From NCBI GenBank assembly GCA_965369625.1, contig CBDUQW010000002.1, positions 27,708 to 91,707 of the forward strand: DNA of 64,000 nucleotides. Direction: 5' to 3'. Below are positions 178 through 61,866 of this stretch, piece after piece (the first letter of the stretch is position 1; the number at the start of each line of letters is the position of its first letter). The notes beneath the pieces were generated by a model. It ran no database searches. It was not told where the DNA came from and was given only the letters and a program-made list of their open reading frames with translations. Source of the stretch: an uncultured Thermoplasmata archaeon (GTDB lineage: Archaea; Thermoplasmatota; DTKX01; GCA-020343715). A program made the translations under genes and the position numbers.

Positions 178-265
178 GGTTGGCTAATGCTATCAAAAGA
201 AGTCTGGGGGCTCCCCTCAGGAGCCCTTGAACAACAGTCCGGGAGCACTTGGAGGGTGTGAGGTC

Positions 266-3200
266 ATGAAGAAAGGTAATATCGAAGGAAGGGAACCAAA
301 GAGCGGACGTAGGATCAAAGGGGTCGGTGCACTGACCGTGTCCGTGGTCCTGTTCATGCTCGTATCGCTGATCATGCCCACCGTGAGCGCAGCTCCCGCC
401 CCGGACCTGTTCGTCGACCCCTTGGACCTGTCCGTGGGACCAGAGCCCCTCGTGGAGGGCGTTCCTGCCACGGTGAGCTTCGTGGTCAACAACATGGGTG
501 ACCAGAGCGCCTTCAGCCTGAACATCTCCCTGTACGACCACGGCGAGCTGGTGGCCGACAAGTGGTTCAGGGATTGCATCATCGGTGAGAACATCACCGA
601 CACCCTCCCCTGGACGCCGCAGGCGGCCGGCACCTACGACCTCACCATCAGGGCCTGGTACGGTCCAGGCTCGACCAAGACCGACCAGAACTGGGATGAC
701 AACAACGGTAGCGTCAGCGTGACCGTGAGGTCGCGACCCGACGTGTACCTGACCTCCTCCGACATCACCCACACCGCCCCCGACCCCGACTACGTGGTCG
801 ACGGGGACCTGGTCACCGTCCGCGCCGTGCTGCACAACGCCGGGACCGCCGACGTGACCTCGTGCAACGTGACCCTCTGGGAGGCCGCCGTGGACGGCGG
901 GGGCGAACGTGTCGCCACGCTGGCCGCCATCACCATCCCAGGCTCCGGCCAGGTAACTGTCAATCTGCCCTGGAACACCACCGGCTTCTCGGGCAAGCGG
1001 AACCTGTACGTCCGCGTCACCGACGTCCTGCCCACCGAGACCGCCTTCGCGAACAACGTGGCGACCATAAGCATAAAGGTCCACACCGTGGAGGACAAGG
1101 TCTTCGACGGCGTGGACAGGGAGATCATCTCGTCCTTCAAGATACAGTTCTTCATCACCGTCAAGGGTGGCGGCACCCTGACGATAACCGACGTCGGCAA
1201 CGCCACGGTCTACCAGGACTACGGCGAGCAGTACGAGATCGAGGTGATGGACACTGGCAAGCTGATAATCGATGGTGGCATCCTCAACGCCGCCATGAAC
1301 TACACCGTTTCGCTTACCGACTCCGCCGAGCTCCATCTGCTCAACGGCGCCGAGTCCAACGTGAGGGTGGTGGCCTCTGGCAATGCCAAGGTCTTCATAC
1401 ATGACAGCACCCTGGACGCGCCCACCATCGAGATGACCGGGGGCGCCCTAACTGCCTCCGGTTCGAACATCACCGCTGGCCGTCTGGACCTCTTCTACAC
1501 CACCGTCGTGGTCGACTCCTCGAGCATCAGGACCGGGGAGACCATACGCATCGTTGGCCAGACCGCCTCGTTCAACGACACCGAGATCAAGGTGGCCCGA
1601 GAGTTCGAGGACATCGTTCTGGCCATCGAGGCCTTCCCGCAGCTGGAGGGCCACGACCCGGACACCAGGGAGGTCGAGATACTGCCCCCGGCACTGGTGG
1701 TCACGGACGGTGCCATGGTGGACCTGCGGAACGTCTCCGTCGATTCCACCATCTACATCACCTCCGAGGAAAGCAGCTACTGGACCTCCAACAGGCTCGA
1801 CGCCGAGGGGCGCACCTCCGTCGTGAACGTGCACAGGTACGTGGTCGTCCAGGTGAGGGACTGGTTCGGCGAGGTCGTGCCGAACGCCGAGGTCCAGGTG
1901 ATGGACTACTTCGACGACATCGTGATCATCAGCGGCACCACCAACCTCACCGGCGACGTGACGCTGGCGGTCAAGACCGACTACGTGACGGCCGCCCAGA
2001 AGCCCTACGTGGGGAACCTCAGGGTGAGGGCCTCCGCCTACGGCAGGAACTCCGACGACGTCTGGTTCGCCCACAGCAAGTACCCCGACATGGACTTCGA
2101 GAGCAACACGTTGTTCGTGGACATCGAGATGCCCCCCAACCCGCACCCGGACATGGGCCTGAGGTACAGGAGGTACGTGACCCCCCACCTGATAAAGAAT
2201 GACGAGTCGAGCATGGACAAGAACATCATCGTCGACAACACCGTGCTCACGCTGTTGAACACCACCTTCACCCTGGAGCAGGAGTTCCCGTACCAGTGGT
2301 ACATACTGATCACCGGCGAGCACGGCACCCTCAGGCTGCAGAACGCCACCATCATGAGCCAGTATCCCTTCAAGATCTACGTGGAGGAGAGCGGGACCCT
2401 CGTCATGAGCGAAGGGTCGGCGCTCCTCGACGTCCGGATCATCGCCAAGGACGATTCCAGCCTCGAGATAGTCGACGGCATCATAATGGGAGGCATCTTC
2501 ACCGAGTGCCAGTCCATCGATATCGCCGGCGCCTCCCGCCTCACGCTCTCCCATACCCACATGGAGGCCACCACTGTCAGCATCACCGGTGGCTATGTCC
2601 ACGAGCAGGCGGACATGTTGATCAAGGCCAACGACGTGATGCTGAGCGGCGTGGAGCTCTCCGCCGACTACGAGATCAGCGACACCGTGGGCGCGGAGGA
2701 CCTTTGGGACATCACCCTCTACTTCGGATGGAGCATCCTCAACGACGAGGAGTACCTCTTGAACATCAGCGCAGGCTTCTTCGACTACTTCGCCGCCGGG
2801 TCCGAGATCACCATCGAGACCTCGAGGCTCAACATCATCGATTCCTTCGTCTACGCGATAGACACCAACATCAAGGTGCGTCGCTCAAGCACGCCCAAGC
2901 AGACGTCCATCGAGGGCAGCTGGATCGGCGGCATCAACCTGACGGTCATCTCCGACGACATGGTGGCCATCGACTCCCACTTCAACAGGGTGCTGGACAA
3001 CTTCTCCGGCACCGACAAGATCCGCCTCGAGAGCGTGGAGGTCCCAGGGATCGTCTGCGAGGGCGAGGCCCTGGTGGAGCGGTACTGGTCCCTGACCGTC
3101 TACGCCTACGACGGCGCCGGGTCCGTGAGGCCCTGGGCCCTCCTGGAGGTGTTCTCCACCGAGACCAACGACAGGGTCTTCCCGCCCACGGGCGAGGAGG

Positions 3201-5425
3201 ACCTGGAATCCAGCCGTACCAATTCAGCAGGCATGATAACCGTCTCGCTCCTGGCCAACGTGACCGACAGCACCGGGGACTACTTCGTGGGCTCCTACTA
3301 CTTCTGGCTGGTCTACGATGGTCCCAACTTCGAGAACGACCCCGCCTACACCGAGACGAAGCAGGTGAACCTCAAGGGGGACAGCGTCTTCGAGGCCCGT
3401 TGGCCCATCGTGATAGCGCCCCTCGAGAAGGATATCATCTACTGCCTCTACACCGCAGAGGAGGCAGGCCCCTCCGTGGACATCAAGATGTACAACCACA
3501 CCTTCTGGTCGGAGGAGGAGGCCGAGCAGTTCCTCAACGAGAGCGCCTACATGTCCTACGACAGGATCAAGTTCAACAGGACCATCATCCGGAACACCAC
3601 CATCAGGATGACCTTCTACGCCTCGGCCAGGGTCAACGAGGTCTGGGAACCCCTCACGGAAGGCACGGTGAAGGTCTACGTGCTGACCACTCCCGACCCC
3701 AACCCCAACCGGCCCGCGACGGACTACAACGGCACGGCCCTCATCTACACCGTAGAGCCCCACCAGTTGGTGGACGGCATGGGGAACATCACGATATCCA
3801 TTCCCAACGGTGTCAGCGTGTACCAGCTGTACATCGCCATCGCTGGTGGTGACTACGACCCGATCTTCGAGCCCATCACCGAGCGGTTCATGGACCTGGA
3901 GGTCAAGCACCCCCAGACCATCCAGATCACCAGCGCCAAGATACAGGAGTATCCCATCCACGTGGGCGATGCGATATCCATCATGGGCTCGGTCAGGTAC
4001 ATCTACACCGACGAGCCCGTCCTCTACGCCGAGATCGAGGTCACCGGGACCTACGTCACCCCCGGACGCGGCCTGACCAACATGGACGGGGGTTTCACCA
4101 TCTCCATGCAGGCGCCGCTGCAGCCCCAGGAGAACGTCTCCCTCGAGATCATCGCGGTGGACCCCATCTCCGACGAGCAGTCCGCAATGATCATCAACTA
4201 CGCCGTCGAACCTCCCTACGAGGCCGAGGATGTGGTAGAATTCCCGTGGGGATGGGTCATCGTCGGTATCATCGCCGCCGTGATCGCCTTCTCCATCGTA
4301 CTGGGCGCGGTCATGATGTACCGCAAGCACTACGGCGAGGTGGTGGAGTGCGGCGAGTGCGGCGCCTTCATACCATCCAGCGCCACCTCGTGCCCCAAGT
4401 GCGGCATCGAGTTCGAGACTGACCTGGCCCGCTGCTCGGAGTGCGAGGCCTGGATACCTGCGAAATCATCCTCTTGCCCCGTGTGTGGAACCCCCTTCAC
4501 CATCCAGTCCCTGGAGGAGGCGGTGGCCATGGAGGAGGCGGAGGAGGACGTGGCCCCCATCGACCAGCTGACCACCTCCACCGCCCAGCTGGCCCCCCTC
4601 ACCCTTGAGGGCTCCACCCAGGCCTCCAAGTGGGGTGACAAGGTGGAGAAGCGCCGCCGCCGCATCAAGAAGCGGGTCAAGAAGCGCCTCACCGTCACCG
4701 ATGCCGAGGGCAACCTGGAGGAGGAGGCCCCCGAGGAGGCGAAGGACCTGTTCGTTGGCGACGAGGGTGATGAGGCGACCCGCCTGCCCGGTCTGGGCGT
4801 GGACGAGTCCATGCTCTCCGACGACGAGCTCTCCAGGCTCCTGCCCACAGAGGACATGCTCAAGGAACTCATGCTGACCAGCGACCAGCCTCCCAGCGAG
4901 GCCGCCCTCGAGGGCGAGGCCGACGAACTGGCCGACGAACTGGCCGACGAGGAGGCTCCCGAGGCGGACGAGGCAGAGGCCGATGCCGATGCTGATGCCG
5001 ATGCCGACGCGATGGAGGCGGGAATGGACCTGGAGGAGATCCCCTCAGAAGAGGGCGAGGTCCCCGAGCCTGACGCCGAGGACCTGGAGGAGATCCCGCC
5101 GCCCGAGGGGGCCGACGACGACCTGGACCTTCCCGAGGACGAGGAGACCATGCCCGGCCTTGGCCAGGTCCCCGACGAGGACAAGCCCGAGGAGGAGATG
5201 TACGAGGGACGCGAGCTGCTCAGCGAGCTGGGCCTGGTCGCCGAGGTGCCCAGCACCGCCGACCGGGATGAGGGAGGGGAACCCGCCGAGGAGGAGTCCC
5301 TCAAGGACCTGCTCACCGAGGAGGGGTCCAAGGAGACCCCCAAGCTCTGCCCCAACTGCGGTGGCAACTGGATCCTCTACAAGGACGGCGAGTACACCTG
5401 TCGCATCTGCGGCGAGAAGTGGTGA
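266..5425 (+). CDS. Giant (about 1719 aa) type I membrane surface protein. It has an N-terminal signal peptide, two CARDB-like domains, beta-helix-like repeats and many N-x-S/T sequons. A single TM segment (WGWVIVGIIAAVIAFSIVLGAVMMY, about nt 4246-4320) is followed by a ~370-aa cytoplasmic tail with three Cys4 zinc ribbons and an acidic low-complexity tract.
   Basis: Long ORF 227..5425 with non-shadow composition. The likely start is ATG 266 (MKKGNIEGREPKSGRRIKGVGALTVSVVLFMLVSLIMPTVSAAPAP, a signal peptide). CARDB-like motifs (VSFVVNNMGDQSA..., VRAVLHNAGTAD...). Zinc ribbons CGECG...CPKCG, CSECE...CPVCG and CPNCG...CRICG. Acidic tract EEAPEADEAEADADADADA. Confidence 0.8.
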   Translation: MKKGNIEGREPKSGRRIKGVGALTVSVVLFMLVSLIMPTVSAAPAPDLFVDPLDLSVGPEPLVEGVPATVSFVVNNMGDQSAFSLNISLYDHGELVADKWFRDCIIGENITDTLPWTPQAAGTYDLTIRAWYGPGSTKTDQNWDDNNGSVSVTVRSRPDVYLTSSDITHTAPDPDYVVDGDLVTVRAVLHNAGTADVTSCNVTLWEAAVDGGGERVATLAAITIPGSGQVTVNLPWNTTGFSGKRNLYVRVTDVLPTETAFANNVATISIKVHTVEDKVFDGVDREIISSFKIQFFITVKGGGTLTITDVGNATVYQDYGEQYEIEVMDTGKLIIDGGILNAAMNYTVSLTDSAELHLLNGAESNVRVVASGNAKVFIHDSTLDAPTIEMTGGALTASGSNITAGRLDLFYTTVVVDSSSIRTGETIRIVGQTASFNDTEIKVAREFEDIVLAIEAFPQLEGHDPDTREVEILPPALVVTDGAMVDLRNVSVDSTIYITSEESSYWTSNRLDAEGRTSVVNVHRYVVVQVRDWFGEVVPNAEVQVMDYFDDIVIISGTTNLTGDVTLAVKTDYVTAAQKPYVGNLRVRASAYGRNSDDVWFAHSKYPDMDFESNTLFVDIEMPPNPHPDMGLRYRRYVTPHLIKNDESSMDKNIIVDNTVLTLLNTTFTLEQEFPYQWYILITGEHGTLRLQNATIMSQYPFKIYVEESGTLVMSEGSALLDVRIIAKDDSSLEIVDGIIMGGIFTECQSIDIAGASRLTLSHTHMEATTVSITGGYVHEQADMLIKANDVMLSGVELSADYEISDTVGAEDLWDITLYFGWSILNDEEYLLNISAGFFDYFAAGSEITIETSRLNIIDSFVYAIDTNIKVRRSSTPKQTSIEGSWIGGINLTVISDDMVAIDSHFNRVLDNFSGTDKIRLESVEVPGIVCEGEALVERYWSLTVYAYDGAGSVRPWALLEVFSTETNDRVFPPTGEEDLESSRTNSAGMITVSLLANVTDSTGDYFVGSYYFWLVYDGPNFENDPAYTETKQVNLKGDSVFEARWPIVIAPLEKDIIYCLYTAEEAGPSVDIKMYNHTFWSEEEAEQFLNESAYMSYDRIKFNRTIIRNTTIRMTFYASARVNEVWEPLTEGTVKVYVLTTPDPNPNRPATDYNGTALIYTVEPHQLVDGMGNITISIPNGVSVYQLYIAIAGGDYDPIFEPITERFMDLEVKHPQTIQITSAKIQEYPIHVGDAISIMGSVRYIYTDEPVLYAEIEVTGTYVTPGRGLTNMDGGFTISMQAPLQPQENVSLEIIAVDPISDEQSAMIINYAVEPPYEAEDVVEFPWGWVIVGIIAAVIAFSIVLGAVMMYRKHYGEVVECGECGAFIPSSATSCPKCGIEFETDLARCSECEAWIPAKSSSCPVCGTPFTIQSLEEAVAMEEAEEDVAPIDQLTTSTAQLAPLTLEGSTQASKWGDKVEKRRRRIKKRVKKRLTVTDAEGNLEEEAPEEAKDLFVGDEGDEATRLPGLGVDESMLSDDELSRLLPTEDMLKELMLTSDQPPSEAALEGEADELADELADEEAPEADEAEADADADADADAMEAGMDLEEIPSEEGEVPEPDAEDLEEIPPPEGADDDLDLPEDEETMPGLGQVPDEDKPEEEMYEGRELLSELGLVAEVPSTADRDEGGEPAEEESLKDLLTEEGSKETPKLCPNCGGNWILYKDGEYTCRICGEKW
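4979..5008 (+). repeat. Hexanucleotide microsatellite (GCCGAT/GCTGAT)x5 encoding (Ala-Asp)n inside the cytoplasmic tail. An adjacent 12-nt direct repeat (gccgacgaactg x2, at 4921-4950) encodes ADELADEL.
   Basis: Direct reading of gccgatgccgatgctgatgccgatgccgac. Confidence 0.8.
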
Positions 5426-6007
5426 GGCGGGGGAGCGCCCCCCGTCCGTCACTCGTTACGGCACCAGCCTGCGGCCTGCATCTTCTGCAAGGGCTGCCCG
5501 GTGGGGATGGGCGCGCATTCCTTGACCCTTGGGGATGGTGATATGTCCAGGGTCGTGCAACCGGCCACCTGGGTGGATGAAGGGTCAGACACGATGCGGC
5601 CTCGGGGAACGCCCTGCCCCCGGGACCAATGATGCATGTGGAGGCGGCCGACGGCCTGGGATCAGGCCTGCGAACGTGGGCGGCGGCACGGTCGCGATGG
5701 GCTGCTGTGCGGTCACGTGGACGCCCCCATGTCAATGGGAGATATGGAGGGGAGGGTAGTCGCTGCCCCGCTGCACGGGACGTGCCTCTACGTTACCACG
5801 GTCAAGGACGATGGGGAGGGTCGGCTCGGGGGTGTCGTCGGTGCGATGGCGAAGGGGAGGAGGATGGGCTGTCCGATGATTGCCATCCGGACCCGTGACC
5901 CCCCCGCCTACTAGCTGCATGTCGATGGCGATGGGGACTGCGTTGCCCTGCCCCGAGCAGGGCTGTCGAGATGACGAATGCGGGCCCGATGGTGGTCCCC
6001 GATGGCT

Positions 6008-6910
6008 CTACATCTCGATGTCGGTCTTGATCAAGGCGTAGCCCAGGTCGAAGAACTGCACGTTCTTGATGTCCATGGTGATGAAATCGCCGGAGATGGA
6101 CAGGACGAAGTCGGTGCCCGGCACCAGGCCGGCGTCGATCATGGAGTTGTTGAAGTACCGGGACCACGCGATGGTGTACTCGGTGATCATGGTCAGGTTG
6201 AGCCACTCAGGGGGGTTGAACCGGTGGGATGCGGCGGTGTAGGTCACCAGCTGGGTCTGGAACAGGATGGTGCTGGTGCCCTGTATGGAGGTCTCGATGC
6301 CCGATATTGTGATCTGGACGAAGGTGACCTTGACGACGGGCCCGAACTTCTCCACGGTGAACTGGGGTCCTATGCGCACGATCTCGCCGGCGCCCTGGTT
6401 GAGGATGAGGGCGCCGTTCTCGTAGGCGATCTCCTGGTTGACGTAGTACTGGTTGTTGGAGGTGTACTTCATCCCGCCGGTGGCGGTGATGTTGACCTCC
6501 CCCGACTGGTTCTTGACGTTGCAATAGTACTCCAGCTCGTCGTTGCGGAAGTGGTTGATGGAGAATGTGCCGGACGAGTCGGTGCCGAACATGGCGTAGC
6601 CCTCGGTGCCCAGGGACACAGGGTTGGCCACGCTGAAGGCGGTGTCGCCCTGCAGGATCTGGTTGTCGATGGTGGCCTTGATGTTGCCGAAGTCGGCGGA
6701 GACCTTGTGTATCTGGTTGGCCTCCCTCTTCTCCATCCAGACGGGCATCCAGACCGAGGTGACCATGGTCACCAGCAGGATCACGATGAGGATGGACAGC
6801 ATGATGGCGACCACGCCGGCGGCGGCCTCGTCCTCTTCCCGGAGGTGGCATATCCTCCGTCTGAGGCGTCCTCCGCCGTGTCCAGCAGCCTGTCCCATCG
6901 ACCTGGTCAT
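6008..6910 (-). CDS. Archaeal type IV pilin-like protein (class III signal peptide / Pilin_N-like N-terminus), 300 aa. It is a paralog of the N-terminal 300 aa of the next gene.
   Basis: N-terminus ...EDEAAAGVVAIMLSILIVILLVTMVTSVW has a charged region followed by a hydrophobic helix, typical of archaeal prepilins. Realistic composition, versus Arg/His-rich antisense ORFs on the other strand. It aligns with 6938..8536 (KVSADFGNIKATIDNQILQGDTAF vs KVVNSQFDGMASSIDKQILNGDTKF). Confidence 0.65.
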   Translation of the reverse strand: MTRSMGQAAGHGGGRLRRRICHLREEDEAAAGVVAIMLSILIVILLVTMVTSVWMPVWMEKREANQIHKVSADFGNIKATIDNQILQGDTAFSVANPVSLGTEGYAMFGTDSSGTFSINHFRNDELEYYCNVKNQSGEVNITATGGMKYTSNNQYYVNQEIAYENGALILNQGAGEIVRIGPQFTVEKFGPVVKVTFVQITISGIETSIQGTSTILFQTQLVTYTAASHRFNPPEWLNLTMITEYTIAWSRYFNNSMIDAGLVPGTDFVLSISGDFITMDIKNVQFFDLGYALIKTDIEM

Positions 6911-6937
6911 TCCCGTCTTCCCCTTTTACAGCTTTCC

Positions 6938-8536
6938 CTATGGATGCAACATTTGATAATATCGGGCGATGTCCGCGTCGGACAGCGCCTTGTCGAATAT
7001 GATGAGCTCGTCCACCTCGCCCTCGAAGTGTCTCCTGTAGATGCCGGAGTGGTACTGGGCGCCCACCGTCAGTCCCTGGGCGACGATGTTGATGTCCCCG
7101 GCGAGCGCGGTGGTGTTCTCGAGGGTGCCGTTGACGTAGATCTTGAGGGCGCCCTCGGCCGTGCTGAAGACGCCTGTGACATGGTACCATATGTTGGGCC
7201 CGGGCACCGTTGAGGACCACACCCAGTCCCGTCTCACGTCCGTGCGGACCGAGAACTCGAAGCCATCGTTGGTGTGACTCGTGCCTACGGTGTTCCCGTT
7301 GTGCTGGAGGGACCACTGGTTCTCGCCCTTGGCCGCGATGGTCGCCCAAGTTGTCCCGTTCCACGGGTTCACGTCCCACCGGACCCAGCACATGACGGTG
7401 ACGCCGTCCTGGACGTTGTACTCGGGTATCTCGGGGATGCTCATGCGCGACCCGGTGCCGTTGAAGGTGTAGCCGCCGCTGTGCACGCCGGCGGTGAAGC
7501 AGCCGCTCCCCACCACGGTGCCGTGGTTGTGGTAGAAGCTGGAATCTGCCGCCAGGGGTCCCGTCCCGTCGTTGAAGTGCCAGAGGCCCACCACGTCCTG
7601 GAGGCCGGGACCGAGGGTGGAACCGCCTGCATTGTCCTGGATCTGGACGTTGACCAGTGCGTAGCCCATCTGGAGGGAGTTGACGTTCCTGATGGCAAGG
7701 TGGATGTCGTTGCCGCTCACGGTCATGATGTAGTCGACGCCTGGGGTGAAGCCCTCCTGGATGAGGGTGTTCTCGTAGTACCTCTGCCAGGCCACGGGGA
7801 ACTCCGTCACCATGCTGATGTTCATCCACTCCGGGGCCGCGAAGCGGAATTCGGCGGTGGTGTAGGTGACCAGCTGGGACTGGACGATGAGTGTGCCCAT
7901 CCCGGTGACCTCCGCCTCCACACCGGACACGGTGATCAGCACGTACGACATGTGGACCACGGGGCCGTGCTTCTCGATGATGAACTGGGGACGGGCCCGC
8001 ACCACCTGGCCCCCGCCCTGTTTGAGGACGATGGCGCCGTTCTGGTAGGCCAGGGTCTGGTCGACGTAGAGGGCGTTGGAGGAGGTGTACTTCATGCCCC
8101 CGGTGCAGGTGATGTTGACCTCGCCCGACTCGTTGCGGAGGTTCGTGTAGAACTCCAGGTCGCCGTCGCGGAAGGAGTTGATGGAGAAGGTGCCCACGGA
8201 GTCGGCGGCGAAGACGGAGGAGCCCTGGACCCCCAGGGTGATGGGGCTGCCGATCAGGAACTTGGTGTCGCCGTTGAGGATCTGCTTGTCGATGGAGGAC
8301 GCCATCCCGTCGAACTGGGAGTTGACCACCTTCATGTGGTCGCTCTCGGCGGTCTCCATCCACTCGGGGATCCACGTGGTGGTCACCATGGTGATGAGGA
8401 GGATCATTATCATGAGGCCCAGCATGATGGTGACGACCCCGGCGGACGCGTCCTCGTCATGCCTGAGCCTCCCCATCCTCCGCTTGGTGGACCAGGTCCG
8501 GTCCCCTGTCGGGCTGTCCCCCATCCCTTCTTCCAT
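6938..8536 (-). CDS. Type IV pilin-like protein (532 aa) with a C-terminal LamG/concanavalin-A-like lectin domain. Candidate pilus-associated adhesin.
   Basis: N-terminus DEDASAGVVTIMLGLMIMILLITMVTTTW (Pilin_N-like). C-terminal about 220 aa contain LamG_3 hallmarks (LWHFNDGTG...HGTVVGS...FNGTGSRMSIP...YHVTGVF...LKIYVNGT...GEVDELIIFDKALSDADI). Confidence 0.7.
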   Translation of the reverse strand: MEEGMGDSPTGDRTWSTKRRMGRLRHDEDASAGVVTIMLGLMIMILLITMVTTTWIPEWMETAESDHMKVVNSQFDGMASSIDKQILNGDTKFLIGSPITLGVQGSSVFAADSVGTFSINSFRDGDLEFYTNLRNESGEVNITCTGGMKYTSSNALYVDQTLAYQNGAIVLKQGGGQVVRARPQFIIEKHGPVVHMSYVLITVSGVEAEVTGMGTLIVQSQLVTYTTAEFRFAAPEWMNISMVTEFPVAWQRYYENTLIQEGFTPGVDYIMTVSGNDIHLAIRNVNSLQMGYALVNVQIQDNAGGSTLGPGLQDVVGLWHFNDGTGPLAADSSFYHNHGTVVGSGCFTAGVHSGGYTFNGTGSRMSIPEIPEYNVQDGVTVMCWVRWDVNPWNGTTWATIAAKGENQWSLQHNGNTVGTSHTNDGFEFSVRTDVRRDWVWSSTVPGPNIWYHVTGVFSTAEGALKIYVNGTLENTTALAGDINIVAQGLTVGAQYHSGIYRRHFEGEVDELIIFDKALSDADIARYYQMLHP

Positions 8537-8563
8537 GTCCTCTCAACACTCCCTTGTGCACCT

Positions 8564-11500
8564 CTAGGTGATCTCCCTCTCCAATGCTGCCAGCGGGAAC
8601 GCCGCCGTCGGTGTGATGGACAGGCCAGAGACCTGCCCCCTCGATTGTATGTCCCCTGTCATGTTGATGCCGAGTGTGAAGTTGCCAGCGCTTCCCGCAT
8701 TGGGAAGGATTATCACCAGCACGTTGTAGGCGATACGCTCCTTGACCTCGAACAGGGGCGACCTGATGAACTCCGCCGAGCCGAAGGAATCGAACCACTC
8801 GTCATCGATGTAGACGTCCTGGTTCGGTCCGGCCGCCAGGTCCCAGGCGCTGTTGTTCGTCCTGTCCCAGTAGAGGCCGATGCGGATCCTCGTCCAGTCG
8901 GCGGGGGGGTTGCCCGAGCTGTTGTAGGCCGCGAAGATCAGGCTGTTCACGTCGGCGTTCTCTCCCTCTGCCCAGAAGGTGAGCTTCATCCAGACGTAGG
9001 GCGTGGACTCCGAGGGGGCTGGCGGGCTCAGGTCCTCCATGTTGACCTTGACGGTGCCGCGGGTGCGGATGGGCACCGTGCCCGAGCTGGCGACCATGGG
9101 GGGGTTCCTGGGCAGATCGAGGCACAGGTTCGGATAGGCCGAAGCCAGGTTGGGCAAGGCTGTGGTGGTACCGATGCCACCCGCGTTGATGCTGCAACCC
9201 AGTGTCCATCCCGCTGTGCCCAGGTTCAGCGAGAACACGACCACGATGTTGAAGTCGGTGCCTGGCGTGACCCACCTCAGGGGAGCGGGTGTGAAGGTTA
9301 TCTGGTTAGCCACGAAGGAGCCCGCGTCCTCGGCATCCAGCTCGATGTCGTCGGGTCCCAGCTTTCTGTCGGTGTCGTTGTTCTGGTCCCAGTAGATACG
9401 CACGGTGACCAGGTTGCCCGCCACCGTGCCCAGCTTGTTGACCCTTATGGAGTTGATGAGCACATCCTGTCCCTCGGCGTTCAAGGTGATCTTGAACACG
9501 GGGACGTTCTGTGACGAGTCGACCAGGGGGTCGGGTATGAGGCCCTCTCCGTGGACGTAGAGCTGTCCGTTGACGGTCCTCCAGTAGGACCTGGACGGGA
9601 TGTCGCTTCCTCCGTAGCCCACAGGGGTGATCGGCAGGGTCGTGATCTGCCCGATCACCTCCGTCTGGGTCGCCAGCTCTATGCTGGTACGTATGGTCTT
9701 GCCCTCTGTCCCGTGGGCCAGGTAGGCGTACGAGTCGACCCGGACGTAACCGTAGAAGTTGGTGTCCATGGGCACCGTCCACATGGGCACGCCGGGGATG
9801 CCGTTGTCGAACAGGGCATGACCTGTGGCGTCGAAGGTGATGGTCTGGTCGTACGCCAGGGTCCCCGAGGATGAGGAGGATATCAGGATGCGGATGCCCG
9901 TGACCTCGTCCCAGGCGATGGTGCCTGCCAGGGTCACGTTGATGGAATGGAACTCGATGGGCTCGCCGTAGCACTTGTAGAGCCACCTGCGCTGGTAGGC
10001 CGTTCCGCCAGCCCTCGTGGGAAGCGTGGTGGTCCCCTCCATGTCGATGGTAACGTGGCCCGAGGAGGCCAGCGTCTTGATGGTGGGGGATGAGGGCAGC
10101 GGCACGCCGCCGGGGGTCTGGGGGTTGATGCCGTCGCCCGAGACCTCGGTGATGGCGAAGGTGTCCGCCGCAGTGTCCATCTGAACACCGACCGTGTCCC
10201 CGTTGTTGCCACGGATGTTGAAGTAGATGTACACATGGCGGTACGGCCACGCCTCGTCTATCCTCCAGCCTCCGGGCGGTGCGTTGACCTCGAGGCGTCG
10301 TGTGATGGCGTTGAAGGCCAGGGGGCCAGAGTCCAGGAAAGTACCGCCCGAGTCCTTGATGTAGCAGTCGACGTCGGTGACGTCGATGTTGCCGAGGAGG
10401 GTCAGGTTGAGCTGGTGGATGAAGACGGTCTCGCCCGTCGCCTGGTAGAGCAGCTCGATCATCTTGACGTCGTCGGTATGGGTCAGGATGCGGGTGGGAT
10501 GCCGGTTGTAGCCCCAGACCTTGAACACGCCCTTGATGGTCAGCACCGAGCTGTCGATGGGGAAGCTGCCGATGGGAAGGATCCTGATGGGGGTGGACAC
10601 ACCGACGGCGGTGATGCTGGTCTGCGACTCGATGCGGACGCCGATGGAGAAACCCTCGGTCCCGCCCGAGATGGAGACCAGGATCCAGACGTACGTGGGC
10701 TCGTCCTCGATGCAGGTGAAGAGGGGAGCCCCGATGAAGTCACGGTAGCCCCCGATGAAGTTGCCGCCCGAACCGGGCAGCTGGTAGTCGAGGACCGTGT
10801 TAAGGACCCCGTCGCGGTCCTTGTCCCAGTAGGCCCTCAGGACCACCTTGTTGTCGGCGATGGTCCCCAGTTTGCGGACGCGTATGCCGTTGACGTTGAT
10901 GGACTCGCCGTTGGACAGGAACTCCAGCTTGAGGAAGAGCTTGTTGGCATCGCCCGACTTGAGTATGGTGGGTGGGGGGACCTCGTCGGTGCCCGTCAAG
11001 CGGAGGGAGCTGAACGAGGTCGACACCGTCACCCTCACGGTGGCGGTGGCGGAGCGTCCAGTGTCGTCGGTGGCGGTGACGGTGAAGGAGTAGTCGCCGG
11101 GCAGCACGGTGGTGGCGATCTTGAGCAGGCCGGTTATGTAGACGCCGTCGCCCCTGCTGTCGACCATGGCGGTGCTGCCGGCACCGAAGGCGGTGACGGT
11201 GAAGGTGCCGTCGCCGTTGTCGGTGGAGGTGATGGTCGCGGTCACGCTGCCCGTGGTGGGCAGGTCGCCGTCGATGTCCTTGCAGACGGCGTAGAGGCGC
11301 CAGGTGGTGTAGTCGTTGTTGGGAAGCACGTCCACACCAGGCAGGGTGGAGTCGGCCCATGCGTAGGCTATGATGGGATCGTGGTCGCCGCCGGAGCTGA
11401 CGCCCCGCTGGACAACGGTGTAGAACAGAAGGCTGTTCGATGTCACGTCGACGATCTTGACGTCCAGCTTGGCCTGGGTGGAGATAGTGCCCAGGAAGTC

Positions 11501-11836
11501 CATGGTCCAGATGTCACCCGGTTCCATGACCTTCTTGCCGGCCGGCAGGCCATCCGATATCTCGAACCTTGTCGGTGTGTCATCTATGCTCACAAGGATG
11601 TAGGTCTCGCCTTCCTTGAGGGGCTCTCCTCCGGTGTGCTGCAGGTGCAGCGTGCCATCCACGGCCGAGGTCCGCTCCAGCATCGGAACGATGTCCGCCT
11701 GGATGGTGGCCTCGGGGCCAGGGATGCTGTACACAAAGGATAGGACCACCGAGAACAGGGACACGGTGATCACAAGGATGAGGAGATTCCCAACGACCTC
11801 GGAGACTGCGTCGTCTCCCGATCTTTTCCACAACAT
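8564..11836 (-). CDS. Large (1090 aa) secreted adhesin-like protein with an archaeal class III (pilin-like) signal peptide. Ig-like/Big-domain-rich, with Thr/Ser/Gly/Val-rich composition.
   Basis: N-terminus MLWKRSGDDAVSEVVGNLLILVITVSLFSVVLSFVY closely matches the archaeal Pilin_N consensus (D/E-R/D-A-V-S-E-V-I/V-G + hydrophobic helix). Long beta-rich repetitive body. A TATA-like GTATAAATAC sits at 11888-11897 upstream. Confidence 0.7.
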   Translation of the reverse strand: MLWKRSGDDAVSEVVGNLLILVITVSLFSVVLSFVYSIPGPEATIQADIVPMLERTSAVDGTLHLQHTGGEPLKEGETYILVSIDDTPTRFEISDGLPAGKKVMEPGDIWTMDFLGTISTQAKLDVKIVDVTSNSLLFYTVVQRGVSSGGDHDPIIAYAWADSTLPGVDVLPNNDYTTWRLYAVCKDIDGDLPTTGSVTATITSTDNGDGTFTVTAFGAGSTAMVDSRGDGVYITGLLKIATTVLPGDYSFTVTATDDTGRSATATVRVTVSTSFSSLRLTGTDEVPPPTILKSGDANKLFLKLEFLSNGESINVNGIRVRKLGTIADNKVVLRAYWDKDRDGVLNTVLDYQLPGSGGNFIGGYRDFIGAPLFTCIEDEPTYVWILVSISGGTEGFSIGVRIESQTSITAVGVSTPIRILPIGSFPIDSSVLTIKGVFKVWGYNRHPTRILTHTDDVKMIELLYQATGETVFIHQLNLTLLGNIDVTDVDCYIKDSGGTFLDSGPLAFNAITRRLEVNAPPGGWRIDEAWPYRHVYIYFNIRGNNGDTVGVQMDTAADTFAITEVSGDGINPQTPGGVPLPSSPTIKTLASSGHVTIDMEGTTTLPTRAGGTAYQRRWLYKCYGEPIEFHSINVTLAGTIAWDEVTGIRILISSSSSGTLAYDQTITFDATGHALFDNGIPGVPMWTVPMDTNFYGYVRVDSYAYLAHGTEGKTIRTSIELATQTEVIGQITTLPITPVGYGGSDIPSRSYWRTVNGQLYVHGEGLIPDPLVDSSQNVPVFKITLNAEGQDVLINSIRVNKLGTVAGNLVTVRIYWDQNNDTDRKLGPDDIELDAEDAGSFVANQITFTPAPLRWVTPGTDFNIVVVFSLNLGTAGWTLGCSINAGGIGTTTALPNLASAYPNLCLDLPRNPPMVASSGTVPIRTRGTVKVNMEDLSPPAPSESTPYVWMKLTFWAEGENADVNSLIFAAYNSSGNPPADWTRIRIGLYWDRTNNSAWDLAAGPNQDVYIDDEWFDSFGSAEFIRSPLFEVKERIAYNVLVIILPNAGSAGNFTLGINMTGDIQSRGQVSGLSITPTAAFPLAALEREIT

Positions 11837-12039
11837 GGTAGTCCCTCTTCTAACCTGGGTTCAGGCAGCCCTGACGTACCCCAGGTCCGTATAAATACTT
11901 TTTCGCATACTTCTCACGCGCGCGAAAAAAAGATATCGGCACTTTTGTTATCCTAGCCAAATAGATTCTGGAAAATCACATATTCTGATAAAAGCCCCTA
12001 AACCCATAACGCCTCCCATATCGCACTCTGGGTGGTAGG

Positions 12040-12070: not shown

Positions 12071-12451
12071 TCAGTACGGTCCCCTGAGAACCTCTCTGTT
12101 GATGAACACGCCCGTCGGGGTGACGGCGAGGATGTTCTTGCCCACGCCGGCGACGTCGCCGTTGACGTCCCGGGCGACGGACTTGAGCTCGTTCGCGATA
12201 CGCCTCATCGCGGTGTCGTCGGTGGAGAGGGCCGAGATGTCCACGAGGATCATGTTACCATCGTAGACCTCTTCGATGACGGGGCCAAGGTCCTCGAAGG
12301 TGGTGACCTCCGCGACCCGCAGCTCCATGCCTCCGGCGCCGGATTCCAGCTCCAGGCCCTCGATGTCGATGTCCCCCAGGTCGATGAACTTCTCGCTTTC
12401 GGGAACAGGCCGTGGATCCGTCTTGAGCCGCTTGAGTAGACCCTTCTTCAT
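12071..12451 (-). CDS. sepF: Cell-division protein SepF (DUF552 family, FtsZ-interacting).
   Basis: 126 aa. C-terminal core ...NMILVDISALSTDD..RRIANEL...GKNILAVTPTGVFINRE matches the SepF fold signature (iLlNL...rriDfl.G...g.ifLltP..V). Confidence 0.7.
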   Translation of the reverse strand: MKKGLLKRLKTDPRPVPESEKFIDLGDIDIEGLELESGAGGMELRVAEVTTFEDLGPVIEEVYDGNMILVDISALSTDDTAMRRIANELKSVARDVNGDVAGVGKNILAVTPTGVFINREVLRGPY

Positions 12452-12604: not shown

Positions 12605-14140
12605 GTGAGGTTCGAACTTCGTGGCGCCATTCTCTTCAGCGCCGACCTGGGACCCGTCGCAGAGCACCTCGAGGGCTACGTCAGGGAGATCGAGGCGGGT
12701 CCCCTCCTAAAGGGCGTCCCAGAGGGCGAGGAGGGCCCCCGCGTCGAGGGGGCCGAGCCCAAGGGTCAGGAGCTGGCGCTGGTCATCGTCTCCGGTCGTT
12801 ACGTGCGGGCCCACGAGGCGCTGCTGAGGCTCCGCAAGGAGCTGTCCACCCGCATGGGCAAGGAGCACCGCATCGGGGCCCGCGGTGTGCGCATCGACCG
12901 CTACACCATCTCCTTCTCGGTGTCCAAGGAGCCCGCCCGGCCCGTCAAAGTGCCCTTCGCCACCTCCCTCGAGTTCCAGGGCGAGACCGCCGTTCTGACC
13001 CTCACCGACGTCTCCGAGGACTTCCTCAGCCGCAACTACGTCGACCGGCTGGTGGCCCTGGTCAGGGAGAAGGTGGACGCCCAGGGGTACGAGGGCAAGG
13101 AGGAGTTCTGGGAGCTCATCTGGACCTCGCCGCCCAGGGAGATGCCCTACCAGGAGGACCCCACCGAGGACATGGCGGGGCGGGGATGGGTCCAGCAGGG
13201 CCCGGGGAAGGGCCGGTGGTTCTTCCGGCCCCAGGCCGCCGCCGTGATCCGGACGATGGAGCGCATCGCCCTGGAGAAGGTGCTCCACCCCCTCGGCTTC
13301 CAGGAGGTCATCTCGTCCTCGCTGGTCCCCTTCGAGGTCTGGCTGAAGACGGGCCACCTCAAGGGCGTGGCCAACGAGATCTACTACTTCTCCGAGCCCG
13401 CCACCCGCAACGAGGAGGCATGGGAGGAGCTGCGCGACCTGGTGAAGGTAACCCGGGAGGTGCCCCGTGAGAAGCTGGTCGACCTCCTCGACGCGCCCAG
13501 GGCGGGCATGACCTACGCCCAGTGCCCCAACATATACTGGTCCTTCCAGAAGCGCACCCTGGCCGACGAGGACCTGCCCATCATGGTATACGACCGCACC
13601 GCCAACTCCTACCGGTACGAGTCCGGGGGGCGTCACGGCATCGAGCGGGTGGACGAGTTCCACCGCATCGAGCCCGTCTACATCGGCACCATGGACCACC
13701 TGGTGGAGCTCCGCGAGGCCCTCATCGACCTCTACAAGCGCGTGTTCAACGAGATCCTCGAGCTGGAATGGCGCATGGCCTGGGTGTCCCCCTTCTACCT
13801 CCAGCAGGCGGGGATGGCCGGGGGAGAGGAGGAGGAGGCCCCCGTCCCCGACGAGCGACGGGAGGGCACCATCGACTTCGAGGCCTACCTGCCCTACCGG
13901 GGCACCCGCGAGGAGAGCGAATGGCTGGAGTTCCAGAACCTGTCCATCCTGGGCGACATCTACACCACCGCCTTCAACATCAAGGCCCAGCGGCACGAGC
14001 TGGTCTCGGGATGCTCCGGCATAGGGCTGGAGCGGTGGACCGCCGTCTTCCTGGCCCAGAAGGGCCTCGACCCCGCCGGATGGCCCGATGGGTTCAAGGC
14101 CTTCCTGCCCGACCTCCCCAAGGGCTTCACCTTCCACTGA
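12605..14140 (+). CDS. serS: Seryl-tRNA synthetase, methanogen-type (atypical class II SerRS).
   Basis: GTG start preceded by GGAGGA. Class II motif 2 SYRYESGGRHGIERVDEFHRIE and motif 3 GCSGIGLERW. Zn-ligand candidates (AQCPN about aa 303, ERVDEF about aa 350, SGCSG about aa 468) sit at positions matching Cys306/Glu355/Cys461 of the Methanosarcina barkeri atypical SerRS. Length 511 aa and a non-canonical N-terminal domain. Confidence 0.75.
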   Translation: MRFELRGAILFSADLGPVAEHLEGYVREIEAGPLLKGVPEGEEGPRVEGAEPKGQELALVIVSGRYVRAHEALLRLRKELSTRMGKEHRIGARGVRIDRYTISFSVSKEPARPVKVPFATSLEFQGETAVLTLTDVSEDFLSRNYVDRLVALVREKVDAQGYEGKEEFWELIWTSPPREMPYQEDPTEDMAGRGWVQQGPGKGRWFFRPQAAAVIRTMERIALEKVLHPLGFQEVISSSLVPFEVWLKTGHLKGVANEIYYFSEPATRNEEAWEELRDLVKVTREVPREKLVDLLDAPRAGMTYAQCPNIYWSFQKRTLADEDLPIMVYDRTANSYRYESGGRHGIERVDEFHRIEPVYIGTMDHLVELREALIDLYKRVFNEILELEWRMAWVSPFYLQQAGMAGGEEEEAPVPDERREGTIDFEAYLPYRGTREESEWLEFQNLSILGDIYTTAFNIKAQRHELVSGCSGIGLERWTAVFLAQKGLDPAGWPDGFKAFLPDLPKGFTFH

Positions 14141-14245: not shown

Positions 14246-15235
14246 GTGGCCAAGAAATCAGCCCGCGCTGAGGCGAGGAAGGTAAAGGACCGCTGGAAGT
14301 CCAAGGTCTGGTACAACCTGTACGCCCCCGAGATATTCGGGGCGAGCCAGATCGGCGAGACCCTGGCGGACACCCCCGAGAAGCTGAACGGTCGCGTCAC
14401 CCAGATCACCCTTCAGGACATAACCGGTGACTTCTCGCAGATGCACGTCAAGCTGAACTTCCAGATCAACCGCGTGGTGGGACTGGACGCCCACACCGCC
14501 TTCGTCGGCCACGACCTGACCTCCGATTACATCCGCCGCCTGACGCGCAGGAAGCACTCCAAGATGGACGGCATCTACGATGTCACCACCCTCGACGGCT
14601 ACCGCGTGCGCATCAAGCCCATGGCCATCACCGAGCGGCGCATCAAGTCCTCCCAGCAGGAAGCCATCCGTGCCCAGATGATGCAGGTGGTCAACGACAG
14701 CGCCAGTCGCGCAACCCTCCCCGAGGTCATCAGGGCGATGATCTCCGGAGAGATGTCCAAGTCCATCTTCCGCAAGTGTAAGCCCATCTACCCCATCAAG
14801 CGGGTGGAGATCCGTCGCAGCCAGGTGATCGGTCGCGAGTTCGTCCCCGACGGCCCCGTCCGCGAGGGTGGCGACGGCTACGTGCTTGGAGGTCCCGAAC
14901 CAGAACCCGAGCCGGAAGGCGAGGAGGCTCCCGCCGAGGGCGAGGTACCCGTCGAGGCTCCCGCCGAGGAGACCCCTGCAGAGGAGGCTCCCGCGGAGGT
15001 TCCCGCCCCCGCCGAGTCGGAGGAGGAGTCCGAGGTGGACCCCGAGACGGTGGCCGCCATCATAGCCTCCTTCGGGGACATCCCGGGCATCGGCCCGTCC
15101 AAGGCCCAGGCCCTCTTCGACAGCGGTTACACCTCCGTCGAGGAGATCAAGGCCCTCTCCGCGGAGGACCTGGCCAAGGTCGAGGGCATCTCCGAGGCCC
15201 TGGCCAAGAGCGTCCACGAGGCCCTCAACGAGTAG
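14246..15235 (+). CDS. rps3ae: 30S ribosomal protein S3Ae (eS1) fused to a C-terminal acidic Pro/Glu/Ala-rich linker and a helix-hairpin-helix (HhH) domain.
   Basis: N-terminus MAKKSARAEARKVKDRWKSKVWYNLYAPEIFG... is the canonical S3Ae start. It is about 210 aa, followed by EPEPEPEGEEAPAEGEVPVEAPAEETPAEEAPAEVPAPAESEEESE and then IASFGDIPGIGPSKAQALFDSGYTSVEEIKALSAEDLAKVEGISEALAK (two GIG-type HhH motifs). Confidence 0.8.
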   Translation: MAKKSARAEARKVKDRWKSKVWYNLYAPEIFGASQIGETLADTPEKLNGRVTQITLQDITGDFSQMHVKLNFQINRVVGLDAHTAFVGHDLTSDYIRRLTRRKHSKMDGIYDVTTLDGYRVRIKPMAITERRIKSSQQEAIRAQMMQVVNDSASRATLPEVIRAMISGEMSKSIFRKCKPIYPIKRVEIRRSQVIGREFVPDGPVREGGDGYVLGGPEPEPEPEGEEAPAEGEVPVEAPAEETPAEEAPAEVPAPAESEEESEVDPETVAAIIASFGDIPGIGPSKAQALFDSGYTSVEEIKALSAEDLAKVEGISEALAKSVHEALNE

Positions 15236-16522: not shown

Positions 16523-16762
16523 CTTTTGCTAAACGAACCCGTCTCGCTTATAAAGGAAGAGGGCGGTCCTCTGTTACGGCAACAGCCGGAAATGTGGTGG
16601 CAAGAGGCGACATACAAATTTCCGATCCCTCCCTCAAAATTGGAAAATTTTTGGAACCATCCTCGGTTTCAATCCCCCCCCCTCCTGTCCCTCTTGCCCC
16701 CCGTTTCCTTTCTCATGTTCTGACACGTAGAGCGGGTACGTTCCACGTCCTCCCTGAGATCC

Positions 16763-19700: not shown

Positions 19701-19891
19701 TTGACGGAGCTCCACGACTCCGTCCCCGAGACGACGTACTCCTGGTTCACGTAGAGGCTGGCATCGGTGGTGGGAGGGCGATCGGCACCAAGGTCGGAGG
19801 GCGTCACGGGTGGGTCTATTAAGGGTACGACGGTCACCATGAGCATTGTGAGGGCCACGACGAGCGGGACCAAGGGGCACGGACGTTTCAT
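16763..19891 (-). CDS. Paralog B' of the giant Gly/Asp-repeat surface protein family (1042 aa). Domain order: signal peptide, beta-helix-like N-domain, about 370 aa of Gly-rich repeats, Fn3-like domain, Ig/cadherin-like domains, then a C-terminal TM anchor (VIIILLLTALALLVLGFLIGHMLKHR).
   Basis: ORF composition. N-terminal signal MKRPCPLVPLVVALTMLMVTVVPL. Repeats of the type AGDGGDAGDGG...GGAGGGGYSGGGGG...VGSGGDA. FTWSPVHGST...ELYWRVATLY is Fn3-like. The start ATG overlaps the stop of the upstream paralog (ATGA at 19888-19891). Confidence 0.8.
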   Translation of the reverse strand: MKRPCPLVPLVVALTMLMVTVVPLIDPPVTPSDLGADRPPTTDASLYVNQEYVVSGTESWSSVKITTFGHLVIPEGTTLSVSQMTMEGLATVDLTGGDLVISPWTAGEVIGINGTCRHMRVTDGSSIIIEGPDGSNRWDGQGVSVEMNVRASREILIENASVVLSAGDGMGPDIPVTLDDLDGRRYAGGDARFVLKTTLDFASLAILNSTVLVQAGVGGDAPDGVTSEGTAQVLGGGYTQGGSVSDRVGSGGDAFIGMTTNKVDVQGSVVHVVGGDGGDAGDGGSVKSNAGLGAGGGGYSGGTGASDPEHPAGPGGQVSGWVGVGGDSTLYILAVEVSMQASEVAIQAGDGGDAGDGGDTAGLGGAGGGGYSGGGGGSHESRNGGANGGTVEGHVGSGGDATATIVSHSVHLSDGILNVTAGQGGRAGDGGTSTGPSGAGGGGHSGGGGAGWIPSASDPLTVNGGSGGTVEGDVASGGDARLEVTSTQGTFFLVDVNVHAGGGGPGGRAGRSHMMAARNEWRGGGGGGSYSGGGGGCIIEDGLWISHGGGTGVIEQGVGDGGDASMRLVVIEPVIHANNHLGATGGDGGFCWRSAALGPTGGEGTGRMTSKGRAHRYVPMSMTALQTPWNGHESKDVPLFTWSPVHGSTTNGDVWGYRFQLALDPDFDLVTLTSDVPDPYANVSGTRKGELYWRVATLYSRPPKRGGPWSEPFKFTHLNSPPSIMEIPQFNISVRMLKEVDLGPYIYDVDDAKHDLKLSSGDPAVLYITDLMIRLYYPSYEEPHQIEFRVSDGYETTVGLLPIRVIDRNHNPDLLAVGDYHLPAEIEMQVGEELVLDVLTIDKDGDRVHLSIESDWDGASLLGNGSLRLSADAGDLGTHHVTLSGTDGRGGSASEDITVHVTKIGEPPLPPIFLAPRDGSAFDEGAPVTFRISVEDPDFIYGEMVTLTLISNISGILLTIETDRDVEFTVNDLAAGAHRISAIVTDGTASARSETDLLVRGKPEAQPVWGPTEDAKVIIILLLTALALLVLGFLIGHMLKHR

Positions 19892-23046: not shown

Positions 23047-23159
23047 GGGAACTACTAAGGACGCATGCTGATAATAATCCCATCGATGCGTGACACCCGC
23101 GTCGTCCGAGGCCAAGGTCCAGGACCGACGAGGGAAAGGATGGGGTCATAATCCCAGGC

Positions 23160-35672: not shown

Positions 35673-35862
35673 GGAGACCCGACCACCTGGTTCAACCTCA
35701 CTCCTTGCATCCATTCCTGCCTGGCCCATATATACAGTCTTGTACGGTTCTTTATCGTTCCCATACGGGGTATGGGGTCCTGGCACTCGCTCACGTGGTG
35801 CCATGTGCGACCGTACGCCTTAAGGGTTGCGACGTGGTTTTCCTCGGGGCGAACCCAGTTAT

Positions 35863-40105: not shown

Positions 40106-40247
40106 GCCAGAAGGCAGGACCTCTGGGCCCAATAAAGGCTTCGGAGCCGCTTCGACGCCCCTGACCCGTGTCCATCCGTTGCCCGCCGATGGGAGAACAG
40201 TAAAATAACCGGAACGACCTGAACCACCGTACTGGAGAGCTGATGCA

Positions 40248-61644: not shown

Positions 61645-61866
61645 CGGGTTGCGAGAGGACCATCGGCGGAAATAAAGGCTTGGGTCCGGCCAGGCCCCAT
61701 GGGTGTCGTTGGTCCCTGCGACAGGGAGTGGCCAGGGCTTCCGATTATCCATTCTGATTATCTCTAACTGATAATAATGGGGTCGGAACGTTTATCTATT
61801 TCATTCGTTGTATCCGGGGGTAGTAGGCGCAGCCAGCGCACGCAAATTAGTAGACCGGGGTGTTGG

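Follow-up and report, generated by a model that had tools for sequence, protein, structure and literature searches.

Three consecutive pilin-like genes, including a 1090-residue modular Pilin_N protein, without a linked motor in 64 kb of an uncultured Thermoplasmata archaeon

A stretch of 64 kb (the window; G+C about 64%) from contig CBDUQW010000002.1 of an uncultured Thermoplasmata archaeon (assembly GCA_965369625.1) carries three consecutive minus-strand open reading frames (ORFs) whose products have pilin-like N-termini. In the order of transcription these are a giant of 1090 amino acids (aa; 11836..8564), a protein of 532 aa (8536..6938) and one of 300 aa (6910..6008), here called genes 1, 2 and 3. 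True genes in the window were recognised by a G+C content at third codon positions (GC3) of 0.75-0.97, and the GC3 of the three ORFs (0.88-0.93) is a strong coding signature. Both intergenic spacers (8537-8563 and 6911-6937) are exactly 27 nucleotides (nt) long, and each has a purine-rich, Shine-Dalgarno-like 3' end. The AT-rich gap of 234 nt between the giant gene and sepF contains a promoter-like, AT-rich leader (11837..11900, minus strand), in which a cgaaaaagtatttatac resembling a B recognition element (BRE) and TATA box lies about 50 nt 5' of the ATG, while a purine-rich 'agaagaggga' is found immediately 5' of the start codon; from a reading of the letters alone, this leader is a candidate for the operon promoter. 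The orthologous operons on related contigs have an identical gene order, with spacers of 14-27 nt. Because of the 27-nt spacers, the one AT-rich upstream region and the order kept in relatives, the simplest reading is that the three genes form a single transcription unit. An earlier note on this DNA had described three ORFs at these positions, 27 nt apart, as a likely operon, and both statements hold.

Gene 1 (8564..11836, minus strand) encodes a modular giant of the PilA family, with a 'VSE'-type Pilin_N module. The match to Pilin_N (PF07790) covers residues 9-86 and reaches 50.3 bits against a cut-off of 25.2 (E = 4.5e-13), and the sole hydrophobic helix of the protein is N-terminal, which bears out the near-consensus prepilin N-terminus and hydrophobic helix noted earlier; the same Pfam search gave no Pilin_N match for the products of genes 2 and 3. 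The N-terminus reads MLWKRSGDDA/VSEVVGNLLILVITV, where the slash marks the predicted cleavage, and residues 1-10 (MLWKRSGDDA; 11807..11836) form a predicted class III leader, removed after Ala10 in D-A/VSEVVGN. V11, S12, E13, V15, G16 and N17 are invariant across the family of the giant, and its processing site, DAVS, is identical to that of PilA1 and PilA3 of Haloferax volcanii (PMC4371748 Table 1). The mature N-terminal hydrophobic helix and a pilin head domain (residues 11-150; 11387..11806) are placed by the Pilin_N match and by an AlphaFold2 model, in which a helix (9-36) is followed by a small beta head domain and then by a string of beta-sandwiches. Helix and head are the best-conserved part of the giant, with 91-92% identity to the ortholog in the related locus L003.

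Behind the head lies a PKD/cadherin-like Ig domain (residues 151-286; 10979..11386), which, when scanned alone, scores 28.3 bits with K319L-like_PKD and 23.6 bits with He_PIG. The rest of the protein (8567..10978) would form a stalk of five beta-sandwich repeats of about 145-178 aa each, R1 (287-430), R2 (431-585), R3 (586-750), R4 (751-912) and R5 (913-1090), which are homologous by profile-profile comparison of sub-alignments (hhalign probability 93-99% for most pairs). No internal repeats were detected by self-BLAST of the giant, and R1-R5 matched no Pfam family even at E <= 10. The earlier description of some 1050 aa of Ig-like repeats holds only approximately, and has to be replaced by a pilin head (40-150), a single PKD/cadherin-like Ig domain (151-286) and five repeats for which Pfam has no model (287-1090). 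The AlphaFold2 model has a mean predicted local distance difference test (pLDDT) score of 75, with values of about 75-92 beyond residue 290, and it resembles the pilin fold of 8fj5 in its long N-terminal helix followed by a beta-rich head. With the whole giant as query, Foldseek retrieved nothing from the PDB but generic tandem beta-sandwich proteins at very low TM-scores, and a search of PDB sequences with the giant-family profile gave nothing useful. The family is narrow (29 proteins of at least 53% identity, the full-length members having 1078-1110 aa). The architecture of the giant, a PilA-family pilin of 1090 aa with a fivefold repeat that lacks a Pfam model, is new.

Genes 2 and 3 are paralogs, as was noted for their first ~300 aa, with 50% identity over 283 gap-free positions (E = 7e-115). 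Gene 3 (6008..6910, minus strand) encodes a DUF7289 pilin-like protein of 300 aa, and gene 2 (6938..8536, minus strand) a DUF7289 module (residues ~31-300) followed by a C-terminal LamG/ConA-like domain. The scores for DUF7289 (PF23960), 29.4 bits for gene 3 and 28.2 bits for gene 2 against a cut-off of 27, are marginal, covering only about 100-130 of the 238 model positions. This assignment is reinforced by a profile of the DUF7289-paralog family, run against 1.84 billion cluster representatives, since it gave full-length matches to about a thousand clusters (1003 at E <= 1e-3, 566 at E <= 1e-10), most of the 1003 being 270-340 aa long and aligned end to end, and since 53 of 70 sampled representatives matched DUF7289. 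Close homologs of the two paralogs (at least 51% identity) come solely from metagenome-assembled genomes and metagenomes of uncultured Thermoplasmata, and many bear the JGI label 'pseudopilin PulG'. The LamG domain of gene 2, likewise foreseen in the earlier note, is a Laminin_G_3 match at residues 360-524 (nt 6965-7459; 69.7 bits, E = 4e-19); the model of the protein has one long helix (18-85) and a confident jelly-roll (315-530), and the nearest solved folds to this domain are the lectin-like HCN domains of clostridial neurotoxins. Additional C-terminal LamG, PKD or beta-propeller domains occur in a few of the sampled family members. The fusion of DUF7289 to LamG is a new element of the locus.

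The minimal rule for a prepilin peptidase site, G/A/S at -1 and a charged residue at -2 (PMC4371748), describes the N-termini of all three proteins, with predicted sites at D9-A10/V11 in the giant, D29-A30/S31 in the 532-aa protein and E28-A29/A30 in the 300-aa protein, each directly before the sole hydrophobic segment. The predicted leaders of genes 2 and 3 comprise residues 1-30 (D-A/SAGVVTIML) and 1-29 (E-A/AAGVVAIML), respectively. In the DUF7289 family the last charged residue lies 28 aa before an invariant Pro in 132 of 175 members and is followed by G/A/S in 144 of the 175, and the two paralogs align to this charged-G/A/S register; distant members have textbook sites (KKG/IASVIGT, DDA/VAGVIGA and KNA/VSNVIGALL). 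Searched against PDB sequences, the family profile aligns to the pseudopilin PulG over residues 2-59 of its mature form (5wda, E = 1e-4) and also matches the type IV pilin 8tob, and the invariant Pro of the family falls on the conserved Pro22 of bacterial pilins. Together with the Pilin_N match of the giant, the minimal rule, the family register and the PulG helix support the class III (type IV pilin-like) signal peptides proposed earlier, and cleavage of all three proteins by a prepilin peptidase may be inferred.

The association of this family with pilus assembly is seen at other loci. A metagenome scan with a DUF7289 sub-alignment retrieved 80 loci, 50 of which were analysed with local hidden Markov models (HMMs), and DUF7289 heads a motor operon in about 45 of these 50. 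In L026 and L071 the gene order, according to Pfam, is DUF7289, T2SSE+PilB3_C, T2SSF, T2SSF and a second T2SSE+PilB3_C, and two ATPase and two TadC genes are present in all analysed loci, L055 and L068 excepted, that extend 5 kb or more downstream. The motor operons of L026 and L071 are followed by a convergent gene for a ~1400-aa protein with CARDB repeats, a transmembrane (TM) helix and a double zinc ribbon (DZR), and a CARDB/DZR homolog is found in 22 of the 24 DUF7289 loci with about 9-10 kb downstream. In the window, the gene convergent with the pilin operon (227..5425, plus strand) encodes a giant of 1732 aa (1719 aa if translation begins at the ATG at 266), in which CARDB and beta-helix-like surface domains are joined by a transmembrane helix to a cytoplasmic double zinc ribbon with a long acidic tail. 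It is related to the ~1400-aa protein both in the TM+DZR region (49% identity over 95 aa, E = 2e-25) and in the N-terminal region (22% identity over 575 aa, E = 2e-11) and, judged by these alignments, is the same protein that faces PilB3-TadC operons. Since DUF7289 and the CARDB/DZR protein are both kept, the window has the two ends of a PilB3-type pilus locus without the motor, and a locus retaining pilins and the CARDB/zinc-ribbon partner in this way is a further new element.

The presence of two ATPases in one archaeal pilus operon has been described as unique to Cuniculiplasma (Gaines et al., PMC12448462). An operon with two ATPase and two TadC genes behind DUF7289 was observed in L026 (with its CARDB giant at 16592-20764), in L071 and in about 45 other loci among L016-L095, which suggests that this arrangement is widespread.

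In the window itself, Pfam scans of the GC3-supported ORFs over the 64 kb gave no T2SSE ATPase, T2SSF/TadC or A24 peptidase, and a search of the ORFs of all six frames with local HMMs for the ATPase and TadC gave no match, in agreement with the earlier statement that an assembly ATPase, a platform protein and a prepilin peptidase are absent from the window. A complete type IV pilus locus (T2SSE, T2SSF/TadC and A24) was found neither here nor in the vicinity of the orthologous operons in the relatives L003 and L004; the linkage of DUF7289 to a PilB-type ATPase and TadC, found family-wide, is likewise missing here and in close relatives. The place taken by the motor elsewhere corresponds to a non-coding gap of 582 nt (5426..6007) that separates the last pilin gene from the convergent CARDB/zinc-ribbon gene. 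A decayed motor in this gap was considered and rejected, as the gap is poorly conserved among close relatives and no ATPase or TadC remnant was detected in it.

The synteny of pilin operon and CARDB giant is kept in L001, L003, L004 and L008, and a profile scan of genome contigs returned only three loci, all in close relatives. In L003 (a 249-kb contig) and L004 (GCA_964353355.1) the block comprises S3Ae, a methanogen-type SerRS, sepF, the three pilin genes and the convergent CARDB giant, followed beyond the latter by ftsZ, ftsZ, secE, spt5 and L11. In the window, sepF (12071-12451, minus strand) immediately precedes the pilin operon and shares its strand. A functional link with cell division through sepF and ftsZ was considered and rejected, as only close relatives keep these neighbours and DUF7289 pairs of distant loci lie in unrelated contexts; the synteny with cell-division genes is regarded as coincidental. 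Adjoining sepF is a gene for a class II aminoacyl-tRNA synthetase with an N-terminal tRNA_bind_4 domain (12605-14140, plus strand), a domain that marks the methanogen-type seryl-tRNA synthetase. The S3Ae protein encoded beyond it (14246-15235, plus strand; 329 aa) has an acidic linker and a C-terminal HHH_5 extension, a fusion also present in L003 and L004.

At other motor-less loci DUF7289 is paired with a large 'VSE'-type Pilin_N protein. The gene of this partner lies directly upstream of DUF7289 in L010-L015 and L088, with two tandem pairs in L014, and adjoins the DUF7289 gene on the opposite strand in L055 and L068. The mature N-terminus of the partners is VSE(V/I)(V/L/F)G, like that of the giant, and the first 145-220 aa of the giant are homologous to Pilin_N partners of about 515 aa (E = 1e-13 and 4e-13). 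The C-terminal extensions vary by lineage and consist of DUF11/CLIPPER, of DUF11 with VWA (the VWA module being carried by the Pilin_N relative in L014), of FG-GAP or, as here, of PKD and five repeats. In motor-linked DUF7289 loci no 'VSE' Pilin_N partner was found within 10 kb. That DUF7289 is repeatedly paired with modular Pilin_N proteins of the 'VSE' type is also new. On an unrelated metagenomic contig, L088 has a Pilin_N-headed ORF of ~1390 aa with FG-GAP repeats (179-4357) directly upstream of DUF7289. A paper on Methanothermobacter aggregation was checked for a link between DUF11 and pilins, and none was found in it.

The interpretation favoured here, with a probability of roughly 0.55, is that the three genes constitute one operon for the pilins and adhesins of a type IV pilus of the euryarchaeal PilB3 type, the motor and the small major pilin being encoded elsewhere in the genome. 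Each protein would be inserted by the Sec pathway and a PibD-type prepilin peptidase would remove its leader at [D/E]-A/ before the hydrophobic helix, whereupon the three helices would pack into a complex of minor pilins; this would prime or cap a pilus for which the ATPase/TadC motor and the small major pilin are supplied from elsewhere in the genome. The two DUF7289 proteins would be conserved 'signature' minor pilins and the giant a modular PilA-family pilin, with PKD and the five repeats as a stalk tens of nanometres long; the LamG domain would be a glycan- or ligand-binding head, and the complex would serve attachment. A precedent for assembly in trans is given by PilA1 and PilA3 of H. 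volcanii, substrates of PibD that PilB3/PilC3, encoded in trans, build into pili (PMC4371748; PMC4858521 section 11). The minor-pilin/tip-adhesin locus suggested by the earlier note is supported by the DUF7289 family, the PulG helix match and the linkage of the family to motors, with the tip location and the adhesin role proposed by analogy.

Several observations weigh against a pilus built by this operon and a distant motor. Some concern the signal peptides: none of the three proteins fits strict or relaxed FlaFind-like patterns, the strict ones having fixed residue classes at +1 to +3; position -2 is occupied by an acidic and not a basic residue; and both paralogs have long leaders of 29-30 aa, although the family includes leaders of 3-40 aa. 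The unmatched strict patterns and the long leaders would fit N-termini that are ordinary Sec signal-anchors of unrelated surface proteins with a fortuitous likeness to pilins. This explanation is already largely refuted and hardly tenable, in view of a giant well above the Pilin_N cut-off and with a model matching the 8fj5 pilin fold, and of a family of ~1000 clusters that keeps charged-G/A/S in a fixed register with the invariant Pro, matches the PulG helix and stands directly adjacent to PilB3/TadC genes. Others concern the models, as the N-terminal part of the giant is weakly predicted (pLDDT 34-78), and the pilin (DUF7289) module of the 532-aa protein has a low confidence that makes it unusable for fold comparison.

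The remaining objections are genomic. Besides the lack of ATPase, TadC and A24 peptidase genes in the 64 kb, a motif scan of the window found no small major pilin or further pilin-like ORF, and within 10 kb of the L003 and L004 operons these genes are likewise missing. Other lineages have the motor at precisely the place where it is lacking here, which may reflect a loss in this lineage. A possible, though doubtful, alternative is therefore a motor-independent surface fibril, in which the three proteins, processed or only anchored by their N-terminal helices, would remain in the membrane as a heterotrimeric pseudopilus-like stub with a long stalk and a LamG head. In an S-layer-less Thermoplasmata cell this could be a permanent component of the coat, or it could serve as a bindosome-like device for capture, possibly together with the CARDB/zinc-ribbon protein. 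Such a fibril would suit a syntenic place from which the motor genes are missing while the pilin and CARDB/DZR genes stay together, and several other DUF7289 + Pilin_N loci also have no motor within 10 kb. It also has parallels, since H. volcanii without PilB3/PilC3 still adheres somewhat by means of membrane-associated pilins (PMC4371748), Sulfolobus places class III signal peptides on sugar-binding proteins (PMC4371748), and the Thermoplasmatales have an unordered glycoprotein layer instead of an S-layer (PMC12448462). However, the absence of a motor from the locus is weak evidence, because pilins encoded far from the motor are the rule in euryarchaea (at a distance of ~500 kb in Cuniculiplasma; PMC4858521, PMC12448462), and DUF7289 is tightly motor-linked in some 45 loci.

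The evolutionary rate of the giant also has to be considered. Its identity to the L003 and L004 orthologs is 75% and 58%, and that of the 300-aa protein 82% and 60%, to be compared with housekeeping neighbours (S3Ae, 85% and 63%; SerRS, 80% and 67%), whereas the LamG paralog (69% and 44%) and the CARDB giant (63% and 41%) diverge faster. Near-housekeeping conservation and a constant length suit a core structural component more than an adhesin, which would typically evolve fast, and this counts against the pilin/adhesin operon and for a surface fibril. A more far-reaching version, which is rather unlikely, holds that the motor was lost from the locus, and perhaps from the genome, and that the three pilin-derived proteins and the CARDB membrane giant were repurposed as a constitutive, motor-free envelope structure. 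The pseudopilus-like anchor, with a lectin-tipped stalk of about 30 nm, would then be a core envelope part of an S-layer-less archaeon. If true, this would explain why the giant evolves as slowly as ribosomal proteins and tRNA synthetases, why its length is fixed and why the position in the sepF-ftsZ block is conserved.

The strong conservation of helix and head, the membership of the giant in the PilA/Pilin_N family, from which major pilins derive (PMC4858521), and the lack of a small major pilin in the window might also be taken to mean that a thick, bottle-brush-like filament has the giant as its major, repeating subunit, with the helices in the core, the 1000-aa stalks pointing outward and the DUF7289 proteins as minor subunits. 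This is very improbable, as the known major subunits of type IV pili are small and seven beta-sandwich domains per subunit would be sterically demanding, and as the adhesive module of related DUF7289 partners is a single one (VWA, FG-GAP), which is usual for modular pilins at the tip (PMC9934059).

Elsewhere in the window, four tandem genes (16763-29478, minus strand) encode paralogous surface proteins of ~1040-1075 aa each, which have an N-terminal signal/TM segment, long Gly/Asp-rich 'GGDGGDAGDGG' repeats, Ig-like (Big_9/PKD) domains and a C-terminal TM helix, and a protein of 1301 aa (31899-35804, minus strand) combines NPCBM_assoc/CARDB domains of extracellular type with two C-terminal winged-helix domains of the DNA-binding kind (HVO_0163-like and MarR-like). 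A Ras/Roc-family small GTPase (37584-38144, minus strand; E = 4e-36) and a Roadblock/LC7 protein (61777-62229, plus strand), 24 kb away, would be the parts of an MglA/MglB-like pair. A radical SAM ORF (39050-40864, minus strand) and an S8 subtilase ORF (40248-42758, plus strand) on opposite strands overlap by about 600 nt, and at least one of the two start codons is therefore probably mis-assigned.

What is understood of archaeal type IV pili comes mainly from their small major pilins. The families met here (Pilin_N, DUF7289 and LamG) and, from bacteria, the logic of modular pilins are already known; the pairing of the near-universal DUF7289 with a 'VSE' Pilin_N protein whose extensions are swapped between lineages offers an archaeal counterpart of the bacterial modular pilins. 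It provides a hypothesis for the attachment of uncultured sediment Thermoplasmata to particles or glycans, and the locus is a natural case for asking whether pilin sets work without a linked motor. In addition, the locus defines a repeat domain of ~160 aa for which there is no Pfam model.

Among known systems, PilA1-PilA6 of H. volcanii (8fj5; assembled by PilB3/PilC3) share with the giant the Pilin_N family, a D/R-A/V-S site, the conserved hydrophobic domain and genes located away from the motor. The 8fj5 chain has 133 residues, in contrast to the 1090 aa of the giant with its PKD domain and five unmodelled repeats, and the giant is probably a minor or tip pilin and not a major one. Its mature N-terminus is VSEVVG, with Glu at +3, whereas the usual Pilin_N consensus motif is VSPVIG. 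According to Makarova et al. (2016, PMC4858521 sections 11-12), the ancestral euryarchaeal pilus comprises an ATPase, TadC, a PilA-family major pilin and a 'signature' minor pilin, arCOG02911, which is 250-550 aa long, duplication-prone and all-beta; an S-layer-like protein has been noted in PilA-based loci, and ATPase/TadC modules commonly use pilins in trans (PMC4858521). DUF7289 resembles this arCOG02911 of the clade-2 euryarchaeal type IV pili in its size, in its tendency to tandem duplication, in having an all-beta body after a class III signal peptide and, in many genomes, in its adjacency to PilB3/TadC, and from these shared properties (PMC4858521) the two are probably the same. Here, however, two copies, one of them with LamG, stand with a giant Pilin_N protein and without a motor.

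Two further systems are similar in part. The large, secreted, PilY1-like proteins with DUF2341/LamG-like (ConA/LamG-type) domains that lie among the pilin genes of clade-1 type IV pilus loci in Methanococci and Thermococci have been proposed as tip adhesins (PMC4858521 section 9), but they belong to another clade of type IV pili, are not built on a DUF7289 or Pilin_N module, and no sequence match to them was seen here. In the Sulfolobus bindosome, prepilin-type N-termini hold ligand-binding proteins at the cell surface and not in a long pilus (PMC4371748); it has its own ATPase/TadC locus, and its binders are solute receptors of ABC transporters, which were not found here. The closest functional analogue is the tip complex of Streptococcus sanguinis, formed by three minor pilins, PilA, PilB (with a vWA module) and PilC (with a ConA-like lectin module) (PMC9934059). 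Both are sets of three minor pilins with two modular members, one of which has a lectin module of the ConA/LamG type; the architectures met here are DUF7289 with Laminin_G_3 (532 aa) and Pilin_N with PKD and five repeats (the giant). Modular pilins are an architectural class and not a homologous family, and the S. sanguinis proteins, being bacterial, are related to the present ones in the N-terminal helix only, are encoded in a pil locus together with the motor, and carry modules that are single domains, compared with the ~940-aa stalk of the giant.

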